From assembly GCA_948505485.1 (NCBI GenBank), contig CAOPQH010000002.1, forward strand, positions 1-33,103: DNA of 33,103 nt, in the 5' to 3' direction. The number at the start of each line of letters is the position of its first letter. The stretch's first letter is position 1. The position numbers and the translations under genes are program-made. Below the pieces are notes generated by a model. The model saw only the letters and a program-made list of their open reading frames with translations, made no database searches and was not told where the DNA came from. Positions 6,112-31,426 of the stretch are shown in pieces. Origin of the DNA: an uncultured Clostridia bacterium (GTDB lineage: Bacteria > Bacillota > Clostridia > TANB77 > CAG-508).

Positions 6112-6603
6112 TTATTTATATTGTTGTAATTTTTCTTCTAACATTTTAAAATCACAACATCTATTAATTATTCTTTGTGGTAATTTTTTATTTATGACTC
6201 TATTGTATAAATTTTTAGCTCTATTTAGGATTATATTTGCATTTTTCTTTTCGTTACACCAATGTATTTGCTTATATAATAATGTTTTATATGTTTCATC
6301 TTGTTCATTTTCAACATCAATTTTTATACATTGCTCCATTGGAATTGGTATCATATTATTAAAGTTAATTGCTCCTAAACTTCCATTATCTATTTTTAAA
6401 AAGTCTATTGTGTTCTTCATTTTTAAGTGTTTCGGTTTAGGAGATGTGAATGGTGCAAAATATAATATTTCGTCTACTTTTAATACAATTCCTATAAATG
6501 GTCTTCTTGCTTTTTCATCATAGGATTTTGATATTCTTTTATCAAATTGGCTCATATATTTTACATATTCTTCTTTAACTATATAAAAATTTAATTTTTC
6601 CAT
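6112..6603 (-). CDS. toxN: Type III toxin-antitoxin toxin, ToxN/AbiQ-family endoribonuclease
   Basis: 163 aa. It aligns along its length with my recollection of Pectobacterium ToxN: FYIVKEEYVKYM vs FYTISSKYIEYL, RPFIGIVL vs KAFIGIVL, APFTSPKPKH vs APLTSPKKWH, MIPI vs MIPI, YKTLLYKQIHW vs YKRMLYKQLQF, CDFKMLEEK vs CNFSLLEEK. RBS AAGGAG. It lies directly downstream of the tandem repeats. Confidence 0.85.
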   Translation of the reverse strand: MEKLNFYIVKEEYVKYMSQFDKRISKSYDEKARRPFIGIVLKVDEILYFAPFTSPKPKHLKMKNTIDFLKIDNGSLGAINFNNMIPIPMEQCIKIDVENEQDETYKTLLYKQIHWCNEKKNANIILNRAKNLYNRVINKKLPQRIINRCCDFKMLEEKLQQYK

Positions 6604-6623
6604 TTATTGCTCCTTAATAAATT

Positions 6624-6645
6624 AGGATACCATTTCTGGTATCCC
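6624..6645 (-). terminator. Attenuator/terminator hairpin between the antitoxin repeats and toxN
   Basis: Stem ggatacc (6625-6631) / ggtatcc (6638-6644) with a 6-nt loop, followed on the minus strand by UAAUUUAUU and then the toxN RBS. This is the same architecture as described for toxIN. Confidence 0.55.
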
Positions 6646-6647
6646 TA

Positions 6648-6757
6648 CTTTTTTCGTTCTTCACTTTATGGTAGAAGTTCACCGCTTTTTTCGTTCCCCA
6701 CTTTATGGTAGAGGCTCACCGCTTTTTTCGTTCCTCACTTATGGTAGAGGCTTACCA
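6648..6757 (-). ncRNA. toxI: ToxI-like type III antitoxin RNA: three tandem 36-37-nt repeats
   Basis: Repeat units at 6648-6684, 6685-6721 and 6722-6757. Minus-strand unit: CGGTGAGCCTCTACCATAAAGTGGGGAACGAAAAAAG. Each unit is bounded by an A-run, and a partial AAAAAG precedes the first transcribed unit. It shares the GGTGA..CTACC.T.AAGTG....GAAA pattern with the 36-nt ToxI repeat as I recall it. Confidence 0.8.
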
Positions 6758-6800
6758 CTTTTTAAACAATAATCAAATTATTGTTTCTTTTATTATATTC

Positions 6801-13890: not shown

Positions 13891-13919
13891 AAAAAAGTAG
13901 CAATGATTGCTACTTTTTT
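13891..13919. terminator. Terminator downstream of the KAP NTPase gene
   Basis: Perfect 13-bp stem aaaaaagtagcaa/ttgctactttttt with a 3-nt loop. It overlaps the stop codon. Confidence 0.7.
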
Positions 13920-22833: not shown

Positions 22834-22904
22834 TTTTGCACCTCCTAAAATATTTATATTTATTTGGGTTAATTTTTACATTAATTTATTATATAAAGCA
22901 AATC

Positions 22905-22997
22905 AAAAGTAGTAAGATATTAATTTTTATTAATTAAGACGAAATCGTACTATGGTATATCGAGTTAAATTAATAAAATTGATATATTGCTGCTTTT
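22905..22997. repeat. Family B nested long palindrome, copy E1 (infA-rpmJ spacer)
   Basis: Outer stem aaaagtagtaag/tattgctgctttt, second stem atattaatttttattaattaa/ttaaattaataaaattgatat, apex gacgaaatcgtactatggtatatcgag. Confidence 0.7.
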
Positions 22998-23004
22998 CAT
23001 TTTT

Positions 23005-23223
23005 TTACTTTGCTCTCCAAGTTATACGTCCTCGTGTCAAATCATAAGGTGAAAGCTCTACTTTTACTTTATCCCCTGGTAAGATTTTTATATAATTCAT
23101 TCTAAGTTTCCCTGAAATATGAGCTAATATTTGATGTCCATTTTCAAGTTCAACTTTAAAATTTGTGTTTGGTAATGCTTCTACTACTGTTCCTTCTACT
23201 TCTATAACATCTTCTTTAGCCAA
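23005..23223 (-). CDS. infA: Translation initiation factor IF-1
   Basis: 72 aa, canonical S1-like IF-1 sequence ([25 protein letters not shown]). Confidence 0.97.
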
Positions 23224-24798: not shown

Positions 24799-24869
24799 TG
24801 ATGTCAGAAGTCTGAAGTCAGAGGTCGGAATATCTATTTAACTTACCTCTACTTCACTGACTTCTAATT
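24799..24869. repeat. Family A heptamer-array element, copy c (secY-adk spacer)
   Basis: Left arm tgatgtcag aagtctg aagtcag aggtcgga, right arm cttacct ctacttc actgact tctaatt. It shares the exact 14-mer agtcagaggtcgga with copy a and the exact 17-mer ttcactgacttctaatt with copy d. Confidence 0.75.
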
Positions 24870-24942
24870 AATAAACATTATAAAAATCATTATAGGGTGA
24901 TATGCTAAATACATATCTCCCCATAATAATATTGGTTTTGTT

Positions 24943-26734: not shown

Positions 26735-26839
26735 TAGATGTCTAATGCTAGATGTCTGACGTCAGATGTCAGATATTCGAAATTAAAATCTCTAATTCAC
26801 TGACTTCTAATTCACTGACTTCTAATTCACTGACTTCTA
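26735..26839. repeat. Family A element, copy d, with three perfect 15-nt tandem repeats (rpsE-rplO spacer, where rpmD normally lies)
   Basis: Left arm tagatgtctaatgc tagatgtctgacg tcagatgtcagat. The right arm is tctaattcactgact three times (26791-26805, 26806-26820, 26821-26835), abutting the rpsE stop codon. Confidence 0.8.
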
Positions 26840-27790: not shown

Positions 27791-27835
27791 TTATATTACT
27801 CCTTTCATAAAATTTAATATTTATGATTTCTAAAA

Positions 27836-27956
27836 TTTTGATGAAATTGATTGGATTGTGCATTTTTGTTAGTTATTGCAATCAGAAGGCGTACATTGGT
27901 ACGTCGATGTTTGCAATAGATAACGAAAATATGCAAGATAATTGATTTCATCGAAA
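27836..27956. repeat. Family B nested long palindrome, copy E2 (rplF-rplR spacer)
   Basis: 17-bp outer stem ttttgatgaaattgatt/aattgatttcatcgaaa (3 G:T pairs). Second stem tgtgcatttttgtta/taacgaaaatatgca. Third stem ttattgcaa/ttgcaata. Apical 7-bp stem ggcgtac-attg-gtacgtc. Confidence 0.75.
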
Positions 27957-27961
27957 TTTAA

Positions 27962-28947: not shown

Positions 28948-29072
28948 CGGAAGTCAGATGTCAGACAAACACTCTTACTTTAATCTTCTTCCTATAATAT
29001 TTTTAAATTAATTATTTTATAATATTTCATCAGAACATATTTTTTTGAATTCTATTTCACTTACATCTAATT
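28948..29072. repeat. Family A element, copy e (rpsN-rpsH spacer), with arms separated by an AT-rich insert
   Basis: Left arm ccggaagtcagatgtcagac (28948-28967). The right arm ttctatttcacttacatctaatt (about 29050-29072) resembles the copy a right arm ttctatttcaccgacttctactt. Confidence 0.5.
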
Positions 29073-29077
29073 TTTAA

Positions 29078-29251
29078 TTTTGATGAAATTGCTTATAATG
29101 TACTTTTTTAAAGAATCTTTTATAAATTTTATTATCTAAAATTGATTAAAAGTAGTAATATGTGCATTTTTATGAGATAATCAAGACGAAGTCGTACGTT
29201 TGTACGTCGAGGTTTGATTATCGAAATTAAAATGTGCAGATTGCTGCTTTT
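29078..29251. repeat. Family B composite, copy E3 (core palindrome 29148-29251 plus a displaced E2-type left arm at 29078-29091)
   Basis: Outer stem aaaagtagtaat/attgctgctttt (2 G:T). Second stem tgtgcatttt/aaaatgtgca (2 G:T). Third stem gataatcaa/ttgattatc (perfect). Apex gacgaagtcgtacgtttgtacgtcgaggt. The 14-mer ttttgatgaaattg at 29078-29091 is identical to the start of the E2 left arm. Confidence 0.7.
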
Positions 29252-29261
29252 AATCTATTTT

Positions 29262-29447
29262 TTACCAGCTTGCTTTTTTAACACCTGGAATCTCACCTTT
29301 ATGTGCTAATTCTCTAAAACATACACGGCAAATTCCATATTTTCTAATAAAACTGTGTGGTCTACCACATAATTTACATCTATTATATTCTCTTGTTTTA
29401 TATTTTTGTGGTCTTGCTTGTTTTATTTTCATTGCTTTTTTAGCCAT
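29262..29447 (-). CDS. rpsN: 30S ribosomal protein S14, type Z (zinc-binding)
   Basis: 61 aa with CKLCGR...CRVCFRE. Confidence 0.97.
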
Positions 29448-30037: not shown

Positions 30038-30346
30038 TTATTTTAATTTTGCTCCGCATTTTTTACAAACACGCACTTTTTTATCATTTTCTATAATATA
30101 TCCTATTTTTGTAGCTTTACCACATTTTGAACATACTACATTAACTTTACCGTTTGGTATAGCACATTCTATAGGTATTATTCCGCCTTCTTCTCCTTGT
30201 TTTCTAGGTTTTACATGTTTTTTTCTAATATTAACACCCTTTACAATTACTTTTTCTGATTTTGGCATTACTTCTAAAACTTCTCCTGTTTTACCTTTAT
30301 CATTTCCTGATAAAACTTGAACAGTATCACCTTTTTTTATTTTCAT
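30038..30346 (-). CDS. rplX: 50S ribosomal protein L24 with a Cys4 (CxxC-19-CxxC) motif in the C-terminal part
   Basis: 102 aa. The KOW N-terminus KKGDTVQVLSGNDKGKTGEVL is canonical. The C-terminal VCSKCGKATKIGYIIENDKKVRVCKKCG is unusual. Confidence 0.95.
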   Translation of the reverse strand: MKIKKGDTVQVLSGNDKGKTGEVLEVMPKSEKVIVKGVNIRKKHVKPRKQGEEGGIIPIECAIPNGKVNVVCSKCGKATKIGYIIENDKKVRVCKKCGAKLK

Positions 30347-30399
30347 TATAGAGTTTCCCTCCTTTTTAGTTTTTTGGTTGATTTTTATTTAATTTAAAT

Positions 30400-30575
30400 C
30401 TATGCATCTTTAATCCTCAGAGCTAAAATGTCTACCGCACATTTTAGTTGAAGAAGCTACGACTAACTATTTGTAATATTCGTTCAGCCTAAGGGCTGTA
30501 CTCATTAACAAATGTTAAGCCTATGCATCTTTAATCCGTAATACTCAAATGTCTACTAGACATTTTCGTTAACGG
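30400..30575. repeat. Structured 176-nt spacer element: two ~55-nt direct repeats, each carrying a hairpin, flanking a central stem-loop
   Basis: The perfect 17-nt direct repeat ctatgcatctttaatcc occurs at 30400-30416 and 30521-30537. Each copy is followed, 8 nt later, by a hairpin (aaaatgt-ctaccgc-acatttt and aaatgtcta-c-tagacattt). The centre has atttgtaat/attaacaaat enclosing cagcc-taa-gggctg. Confidence 0.7.
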
Positions 30576-30576
30576 C

Positions 30577-30945
30577 TTAAAGAACTTCTGGGGCTAAAGA
30601 TAATATTTTCATATATTCTTTTTCTCTTAATTCCCTTGCAACTGGTCCAAATATACGTGTTCCTTTTGGTGTTCCGTCTTCTTTAATTATTACAGCTGCA
30701 TTTTCATCAAATTTAATATATGATCCATCTGCTCTTCTTAAACCTTTTTTTGTTCTTACTATAACTGCTTTTACTACTTCGCCTTTTTTTACAACGCCAC
30801 CTGGTGTTGCTGATTTAACAGAAGCAACTATAACATCTCCTATGTTAGATGTTTTTCTATATGATCCACCTAAACATCTGATACACATAATTTCTTTTGC
30901 ACCAGTGTTGTCTGCAACTTTTAATATTGTCTGTTGTTGTACCAT
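30577..30945 (-). CDS. rplN: 50S ribosomal protein L14
   Basis: 122 aa, [18 protein letters not shown], canonical L14. Confidence 0.97.
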
Positions 30946-31302: not shown

Positions 31303-31426
31303 GTGTCGGATATCGGATGTCTGTAAAATAGATGTCAGTTAATATATCTCTACTTCAGTTTTTACATATAACTTTTTTTGTATCTCTGACCTCTGATTTC
31401 TGACCTCTGATTTCTAACCTCTAATT
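31303..31426. repeat. Family A element, copy f (rpmC-rpsQ spacer), with 14-nt tandem repeats
   Basis: Left arm gtgtcgga tatcgga tgtctg..tagatgtcag. In the right arm, tctgacctctgatt occurs twice (31385-31398, 31399-31412), then tctaacctctaatt (31413-31426) overlaps the rpmC stop codon. Confidence 0.75.

Follow-up and report, generated by a model that had tools for sequence, protein, structure and literature searches.

The question raised by this locus is what three long, interrupted hairpins in the spacers of a ribosomal-protein (r-protein) gene cluster represent, and on which of the two DNA strands their structure is selected. The window, i.e., the whole 33,103-nt stretch of DNA from an uncultured Clostridia bacterium that was analysed here, has a G+C content of 24-31%, and the S10-spc-alpha r-protein cluster occupies its right two-thirds on the minus strand (Pfam labels taken from same-species contigs). 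Metagenome contigs of the same species are 99.2-100% identical to it, and a SpoVT gene was found among its proteins. The three hairpins, pointed out in an earlier note on this DNA, do exist: they possess inverted arms, fold as RNA beyond the level of shuffled sequences, and are matched by a covariance model. All are listed here on the plus strand. E1 (22900-23002), the most degenerate copy, lies in the infA / rpmJ (L36) spacer and has inverted arms of 46 nt (74% complementary); E2 (27832-27960) lies in the rplF (L6) / rplR (L18) spacer (arms of 52 nt, 75%); and E3 (29138-29261) lies in the rpsN/Z (S14) / rpsH (S8) spacer (arms of 36 nt, 81%). The distance from foot to stop codon (of infA, rplF, and rpsN, respectively) is 0-2 nt: 2 nt separate the base of E1 from the infA stop codon (23005-23007, minus strand) and the base of E2 from that of L6 (27962-27964, minus strand), while the base of E3 abuts the S14 stop codon (29262-29264, minus strand) with no gap. 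Of the extents proposed earlier, that of E3 needs correction: it had been drawn at 29078-29251, and the stretch 29078-29137 is outside the hairpin. It contains only a solo arm fragment, the 14-mer ttttgatgaaattg (29078-29091, plus strand), which is identical to the 5' end of E2 (at 27838) and which an inverted-repeat search pairs with 29024-29035. Since relatives show decayed tandem copies, this 14-mer probably is the remnant of a decayed neighbouring copy. The other shared arms were confirmed on reading: tgtgcattttt is present in E2 and E3, and the aaaagtagtaa/ttgctgctttt stem in E1 and E3.

The three elements also have an apical core in common, as had been claimed. The apex pattern CGTACNNNNGTAYRTCGA has three exact matches in the window, all on the plus strand, where 0.06 are expected, and the corresponding apical modules are GAAATCGTACTATGGTATATCGA in E1 (22941-22963, plus strand), GAAGGCGTACATTGGTACGTCGA in E2 (27885-27907, plus strand; the CAGAAG...TCGATG subtype), and GAAGTCGTACGTTTGTACGTCGA in E3 (29188-29210, plus strand). 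A covariance model built on 50 relatives and run over the 33 kb window recovered E1-E3 as the only copies, the remaining matches (20 bits or less) being plain terminator hairpins. The scores on the plus strand are about 2.4-fold those on the minus strand: 121 versus 51 bits for E3, 108 versus 44 for E2, and 67 versus 26 for E1. Variation within the species touches one of the pairs. In two strain contigs a G-to-T polymorphism in E2 closes a predicted G/A mismatch (27872/27920); the fold of the strain form pairs these positions and is the more stable one (-57.0 versus -53.1 kcal/mol), and the second polymorphism of these contigs in E2, at 27895, falls in the variable tetraloop.

The strand on which the hairpins fold best was determined from energies and from a recount of the imperfect pairs. 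As plus-strand RNA, E1, E2, and E3 fold with -26.5, -55.9, and -49.2 kcal/mol, respectively (z-scores of -5.2, -10.7, and -9.5 against dinucleotide shuffles), versus -13.1, -30.8, and -29.5 kcal/mol for the minus strand; the gain of 13-25 kcal/mol bears out the suggestion that they would fold better as plus-strand RNA. With DNA parameters the plus strand is still favoured, by a margin of 6-8 kcal/mol, and its advantage in folding energy is two to three times as large for RNA as for DNA. The plus-strand folds contain 18 G:T pairs (E1 5, E2 9, E3 4) and the minus-strand folds none, while E2 holds the lone C:A mismatch (27861/27931); the hand count given before, at least 9 G:T against 1-2 A:C, was therefore conservative. 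Base composition does not explain this bias: calculated from the base skews, the products P(G)P(T) and P(A)P(C) are the same for the plus strand of the window, which predicts parity of G:T and A:C. Deamination on the non-transcribed or leading strand predicts, in the established models of strand asymmetry, a bias in the opposite direction. On these two grounds a mutational origin of the G:T bias was rejected.

The same asymmetry pervades the family. In 50 low-GC copies there are 304 G.U pairs on the antisense strand (that of the element) versus 28 on the gene strand, i.e., 12% of the pairs as compared to about 1.3% (28/2143), and several wobbles are conserved by position (among them UG in 43 of the 50 copies and GU in 45). 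All 50 fold more stably on the antisense strand, with a mean difference of -23.4 kcal/mol, and this strand is favoured in 27 of 31 copies of the mid-GC group and in 50 of 55 of the high-GC group. Pairing is maintained as well: 93.2% of the cells are paired in the 50 low-GC copies versus 75.8% when shuffled and about 40% in slid controls, with no shuffle out of 500 attaining the actual figure; compensatory changes on both sides are seen in 30 of the 41 pairs. A single orthologous site, the S7|fusA junction in 11 species, gives 25 of 53 pairs with changes on both sides. Where G.U is common in a column of this site, the antisense strand has hardly any states other than G.U and Watson-Crick; antisense A.C, the counterpart of G.U in the mRNA, is rare there, as are other non-pairs. 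Variable columns of this kind indicate that selection acts on that strand. Thus, structural selection is on the antisense strand (in the window, the plus strand), and the structured element is selected copy by copy, its constrained strand being antisense to the gene whose stop codon it abuts. The idea that structure is under selection, originally drawn from three copies, is accordingly upheld by covariation both among the 50 copies and within one site.

Position and orientation are equally regular. Wherever orientation was assessable, the copy proved antisense to the gene with its stop codon at the hairpin base. This includes about 55 copies of the low-GC group situated between co-directional genes and 22 further model matches; among the latter, the 130-nt frame of the model enters the upstream gene by 1-10 nt in the 16 non-tandem matches with an assessable neighbour. 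In Bifidobacterium the 3'-side neighbour is a gene on the opposite strand in all assessable cases, and its stop codon adjoins the hairpin foot or, in several copies, lies inside it. Some copies are only about 30 nt from the start codon of the next gene. The low-GC copies are located in highly expressed operons (str, S10-spc-alpha, L11-L1, grpE-dnaK, and groESL), at the junctions S12|S7, S7|fusA, fusA|tuf, and L11|L1 of the str and L11 operons, at L23|L2, S13|S11, L14|L24, S14|S8, L6|L18, and infA|L36 among the r-protein genes, and at grpE|dnaK and groES|groEL among the chaperone genes, with a few copies at other sites (most junction proteins were identified by eye from sequence). The r-protein setting stressed in the earlier note thus holds in this lineage, but outside it the family is not confined to such operons: Bifidobacterium copies lie 3' of ldh, glgP, glnA, nusG, aconitase, araD, and other genes, and those of mid-GC Clostridia follow diverse genes.

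A separate observation concerns the 448-nt L23|L2 spacer of the S10 operon (1884-2332) on L144, a contig of the same species. It holds, at 2193-2319 upstream of rplB, a diverged and loosely paired apex-like hairpin in sense orientation (CCGGAGGCGTACTAAGGTAGGTCGAGG, 33 bits), the sole sense-oriented candidate, which folds with -29.2 kcal/mol on the sense and -19.9 kcal/mol on the antisense strand. The model match stops a few nucleotides short of the rplB ribosome-binding site, and a small GCGACG/CGTCGC hairpin sits immediately 3' of the L23 stop codon.

How far the family extends was gauged by scanning public genomes, one per species, with the pattern GAARNCGTACNNNNGTAYRTCGAKKT. At least 118 stretches matched, where we expect about ten chance matches in the scanned collection (our own estimate from information content), and among the matches listed 125 of 143 assessable ones form a hairpin tip with at least 20 enclosing pairs. 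The apical module is recovered in many genomes of several phyla. Carriers with the full architecture seen in the window are metagenome-assembled genomes (MAGs) of low-GC gut Clostridia; others are mid-GC Clostridia, Oscillospiraceae, and further Clostridia MAGs titled Eubacteriales, many Bifidobacterium species (60-65% G+C; cultured ones include B. primatium, B. callitrichos, and B. catulorum), and members of Fibrobacterales, Leptospirillia, Nitrospirales, Thermoleophilia, and Myxococcota. What they share is the module C-GAAG-GCGUAC-N4-GUACGUC-GAG, which caps long hairpins whose stems below the apex are unrelated from lineage to lineage. The tip consists of a conserved 7-bp GGCGUAC/GUACGUC helix, a variable tetraloop, a purine GAA/GA internal loop, and a closing C-G pair; conservation across phyla includes bases beyond those of the search pattern (the C before GAA, the G of GAAG, and the G after TCGA), and it is the centre of the hairpin that is conserved, not its ends. 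On the antisense strand the irregular features are purine-rich (the GAA/GA loop, tandem G.A/A.G, and tandem U.G/G.U); on the sense strand, pyrimidines prevail in the internal loops. There is a second loop, AAGGCG...CAACGNAG, that is recurrent in Bifidobacterium, with similar loops in Fibrobacterales and some other GC-rich copies. Mid-GC Clostridia carry the hairpin as an arm of a larger unit, about 220 nt long, that forms a three-way junction on the same strand: the two ends of the unit, 5' GGGAUAGGAAAAAA... and 3' ...UUUUUAACAUCCC, pair with each other, and there is a third helix, GCAAAAGGC/GCCUUUUGC, with covariation from locus to locus. Such units, of about 215-230 nt (317 nt in L058), were found in the MAG loci L028, L040, L058, L061, L110, L117, L120, L139, and L142, and a convergent gene has its stop codon close to their 3' end (about 10 nt apart in L040). 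A more branched form of the unit was noticed in L039, L051, L116, and L130.

The family is apparently widespread and uncatalogued. Rfam 15 gave no match in the window at the gathering score, and at E<=1 or E<=10 the elements and 12 related loci retrieved only spurious sub-threshold matches to miRNA and snoRNA hairpins; known RNA families (among them Clostridiales-1, r-protein leaders, 6S, raiA, and HEARO) were discarded accordingly, and the literature on the motif and on repeat families of Bifidobacterium or Clostridia yielded no description. As far as these comparisons reach, the view that this is not a named repeat family stands. By-eye resemblances to group II intron domain V, the kink-turn, hairpin-ribozyme loop A, SRP domain IV, the sarcin-ricin loop, the LexA Cheo box, and the 16S 3' region (9-mer GAAGUCGUA) were dropped after comparison. 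A small ORF on the mRNA strand was likewise rejected: some copies begin with ATGAAAAGCAGC, but the reading frames are not conserved. For a phage origin, 21 IMG/VR stretches carry the apex pattern, all of them GC-rich and none a long apex-centred hairpin; for a plasmid origin, PLSDB held no match to one Bifidobacterium copy and one window copy. A plasmid single-strand origin of the ssoA type, with CS-6 (TAGCGT) in its terminal loop, was set aside on the variable tetraloop and the same lack of a PLSDB match.

The outer stems of the window copies raise the possibility of unusually long intrinsic, perhaps bidirectional, terminators. The terminator-like stem-loops of low-GC Firmicutes, a few nucleotides from the stop codon with a 5' A-run and a 3' T-run (PMC1590033), recall the A-tract/T-tract flanks on the outer stems in the window and in some Bifidobacterium copies (L046, L082); moreover, the weak model matches in the window are plain terminators. 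A plain A-tract/T-tract terminator hairpin at 13891-13919, which overlaps the stop codon of the KAP NTPase gene and serves here for comparison only, does resemble the E1/E3 outer stem as had been remarked, but at 16.9 bits (E 0.54) it is not a member of the family. The related thought that a terminator had acquired extra modules in its loop is a fair anatomical description; as an account of origin it is a suggestion; the outer stems are conserved with the unit, and the GC-rich relatives are mostly without U-tracts. At least six T in 8 nt at the hairpin foot were found in 2 of 43 GC-rich copies on the antisense and 4 of 43 on the sense strand, a test that is uninformative in the AT-rich window, and since U-tracts are this rare the elements are not canonical intrinsic terminators. 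Nor do they mark the end of a transcription unit: E1-E3 are within the spc/alpha operon cluster, where read-through is required, and their relatives sit within operons too. The family members are five to ten times longer than terminator-like stem-loops and have conserved internal loops and an apex; terminators have no need for conserved purine loops or for 26 nt of apex common to several phyla. We regard this explanation as highly improbable.

Taken as a whole, the observations seem to us best explained, if only tentatively, by a maintained hairpin family that works as a strand-selective barrier at the level of antisense RNA, with an apex that docks a factor or nucleates folding. The element would act as RNA made from the antisense strand (plus in the window): antisense transcripts heading into a heavily used gene would form the complete hairpin of about 50 bp, with hardly an interruption, at the border of the coding region and might thereby be stopped, trimmed, or sequestered. 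The operon mRNA would form a much weaker hairpin, broken by C.A mismatches, that RNA polymerase, ribosomes, and RNase III could tolerate inside the operon. The apical module may nucleate folding, serve as the docking site of a conserved cellular factor, or both. Irregular motifs of this kind (purine loops, tandem G.A, tandem U.G) are typical of RNA, and they favour the RNA barrier together with the two- to three-fold larger energy gain for RNA and with the opposite strand that known systems of transposition as single-stranded DNA (ssDNA) would predict. Several points count against it. No antisense promoter was found (a consensus promoter scan 5' of the copies on the antisense strand gave 45 hits versus 44.7 expected, with no conserved -35/-10), and the U-tract is mostly absent in GC-rich copies. 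A barrier alone does not explain 26 nt of apex conserved across phyla, which points to a conserved binding partner; several copies within one operon seem redundant for insulation; and the asymmetry that persists with DNA parameters, at 6-8 kcal/mol, would also fit an ssDNA form. An independent sRNA gene was rejected on the background-level promoter scan. It is also possible, if doubtful, that we are dealing with a distinct and ancient class, an antisense-RNA or template-strand-DNA module at gene 3' ends whose GAA/GA apex is a predicted docking site, and by which the ends of heavily transcribed genes would be marked or insulated in Firmicutes, Actinobacteria, Fibrobacteres, and other phyla.

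A cis-acting mRNA element would also be expected to have a fixed orientation and to touch the stop codon; it would be an intercistronic or 3'-flank hairpin for exonuclease protection, processing, or coupling, with C.A mismatches selected to allow read-through and an antisense fold that is a by-product. The sense-strand RNAs of E2 and E3 fold significantly in their own right (z about -7.3), low-GC Firmicutes typically have high-stability stem-loops within 20-50 nt of stop codons (PMC1590033), and co-transcribed ERIC, REP, and Correia repeats modulate mRNA stability (PMC3184786, PMC1590033). The pair statistics nevertheless speak against selection on the mRNA: G.U makes up only that 1.3% of the sense-strand pairs, and the variable columns are C.A or Watson-Crick on this strand but almost never G.U, a pattern that obeys neither a rule of "must pair" nor one of "must mismatch". 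The pyrimidine-rich loops of the sense strand are a further argument against it, and in mid-GC Clostridia the hairpin lies beyond a terminator-like hairpin in sense direction and may therefore be outside the mRNA. We consider an mRNA element unlikely.

Whether the element is a resident or a mobile feature was judged from relatives. Comparison of orthologous spacers in related species gave a mixed picture for the presence or absence of copies: occupancy differs at some sites (at S13|S11, for instance, L041, L064, and L078 have a copy and the window has none), while at others same-site copies persist. The nearest relative of most copies is the same-site copy in another species, not a paralogue in the same genome, which points to a vertically maintained family with copies inherited at fixed sites. 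Tandem arrays and decayed copies do occur in relatives. No consistent target-site duplication flanks the hairpins, isolated 8-9-nt repeats being present at glgP copies only. Among the matches listed, no transposase or recombinase gene was seen near the 118 loci (8-kb), and no transposase-like family is shared by them; none was found among the 10 window proteins scanned either. A cut-and-paste MITE was rejected for want of consistent target duplications and of a transposase family common to the loci.

In a handful of cases the last codons of the upstream gene recur, as a diverged copy, after the element or after each member of a tandem pair: L026, L030, L056, and L143 (all Bifidobacterium glgP 3' ends) and L052 (S7|fusA). 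Examples are GCGAGCGGG, present on both sides in L030, and TTTTACCA, found after each L052 copy. This suggests that the element was duplicated together with the gene end; such gene-end copies are absent at most other sites.

A selfish, MITE-like palindromic repeat without host function could in principle produce the orientation bias too, if sense insertions, harmful as terminators or RNase III sites, had been lost as strong hairpins in essential mRNAs. The multiple copies, tandem arrays, solo-arm remnants, and varying site occupancy accord with this, as does the sole sense candidate (L144, 2193-2319, 33 bits), which is diverged and loosely paired. Against it, orthologous copies with compensatory changes are kept in many species; there are no terminal inverted repeats with target duplications; conservation is at the centre and not at the ends; and the copies are concentrated in the most highly expressed operons, not in dispensable DNA. 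The orientation lock is kept, moreover, after monocistronic genes, where a strong sense hairpin should do no harm. A purely selfish origin thus seems very unlikely.

A different account of the strand bias has the element act as ssDNA on the transcription-template strand, the leading-strand template for co-directional genes, read by a strand-specific DNA enzyme such as a REP-associated/IS200-like HUH tyrosine transposase or an attC-type recombinase; alternatively, the bias would spare the lagging-strand template from folding. Propagation and maintenance, not RNA function, would then explain the asymmetry, which does persist with DNA folding parameters; the weak strand would be the one exposed as lagging-strand template in co-directional operons, and the tandem arrays, decayed copies, and differences in presence between species accord with this account. 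For a link between orientation and replication, the GC skew of the 8-kb Bifidobacterium loci was uninformative: it is positive on the element strand in 27 of 34, a figure confounded by coding bias. The layout resembles that of attC sites, which are imperfect palindromes directly 3' of an ORF, with structure conserved over sequence, and of which only the bottom strand folds properly; in both cases arrays run along co-oriented genes and the fold is on the strand antisense to the ORF. However, the base of attC is conserved (R''/R' cores and extrahelical bases) and its tip variable, which is the reverse of our family, and the flanks of E1-E3 are core housekeeping genes, not cassettes, with no integrase gene seen. 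By reading, neither R'' (RYYYAAC) nor R' (GTTRRRY) is present at the bases of E1-E3, which are A/T runs that differ between copies. IS200/IS605-type elements have their active strand on the lagging-strand template, opposite to the strand favoured here. The absence of consistent target-site duplications and of a transposase or recombinase near the 118 loci (among the matches listed), the lack of plasmid or phage copies in PLSDB and IMG/VR, the inheritance of copies at fixed sites, and the two- to three-fold larger energy gain for RNA also weigh against ssDNA, which we take to be improbable as the active form.

In behaviour, the closest known systems are the REP/REPIN and ERIC repeats. REPs are intergenic palindromes found mainly 3' of ORFs, between unidirectional or convergent genes, that may overlap or supply the stop codon, pair into large hairpins, occur in tandem clusters, and are thought to act as single strands (PMC3733652), which speaks for the ssDNA account. 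The location downstream of ORFs, often touching the stop codon, is seen in the E1-E3 family as well. The differences are in the units, which in REP measure 20-40 bp with conserved arms, whereas here a single hairpin of 100-130 nt is conserved at its tip; in the unpaired GTAG/CGTC tag of REP, of which reading of E1-E3 shows no equivalent (E1 and E3 do have GTAG in the 5' arm, but it is base-paired there and varies between copies, alignment columns 21-24, and CGTC occurs only inside the apical helix); and in the inheritance of our copies at fixed sites. No RAYT (Y1 HUH transposase) gene was seen in the 8-kb loci or among the 10 window proteins scanned, and the families of the REP survey include no Firmicutes or Bifidobacterium (PMC3733652).

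As regards ERIC and Correia, elements of both kinds occur in both orientations, and ERIC has a conserved central core; the work of De Gregorio in 2005 reportedly found that the RNA folds of ERIC depend on orientation. ERIC/IRU sequences, imperfect palindromes about 127 bp long, occupy transcribed intergenic regions and are co-transcribed (PMC3184786), in which they are like our elements. ERIC and Correia differ by having terminal inverted repeats and TA target duplications, the E1-E3 family being without duplication, and from these as well as from NEMIS, RUP, and bcr1 the family is set apart by its strictly antisense orientation and by a module common to phyla instead of one family.

REP and ERIC are usually regarded as lineage-specific, semi-selfish DNA. 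Here a 26-nt module spans distant phyla, is locked antisense to the gene that it abuts, and occupies the same sites of the most highly expressed operons across species. If the antisense strand is the active form, the module could represent a general, unrecognised device at gene ends that might control antisense transcription or handle the template strand, the apex offering a sequence-defined handle for finding its partner factor. In practical terms, the element accounts for the oversized spacers in these r-protein operons, and the covariance model can be used to annotate such elements in gut metagenomes.

Other repeats in the window are unrelated to the hairpins. Tandem repeats of 14-15 nt with GTCAG/CTGAC cores occupy r-protein spacers at 24799-24871, 26791-26839, 28950-28975, and 31385-31426 and constitute a separate repeat family; one of them, TCTAATTCACTGACT, is repeated 3.3 times with 100% identity between S5 and L15, a spacer in which no ORF of at least 60 aa (and no L30 gene) was called. 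The L14|L24 spacer (30346-30577) contains a duplicated unit of about 90 nt (AAAATGTCTAGTAGACATTT...GGATTAAAGATGCATAG), in place of which a related species (L127) has a hairpin element. Outside the r-protein cluster, a type III toxin-antitoxin locus is located at 6112-6763 on the minus strand: the ORF at 6112-6603 belongs to the ToxN family (Pfam ToxN_toxin, E 6e-51), and the 37-nt tandem repeat directly upstream of it (6648-6763, 3.2 copies, 90% matches) probably is the ToxI antitoxin RNA array.
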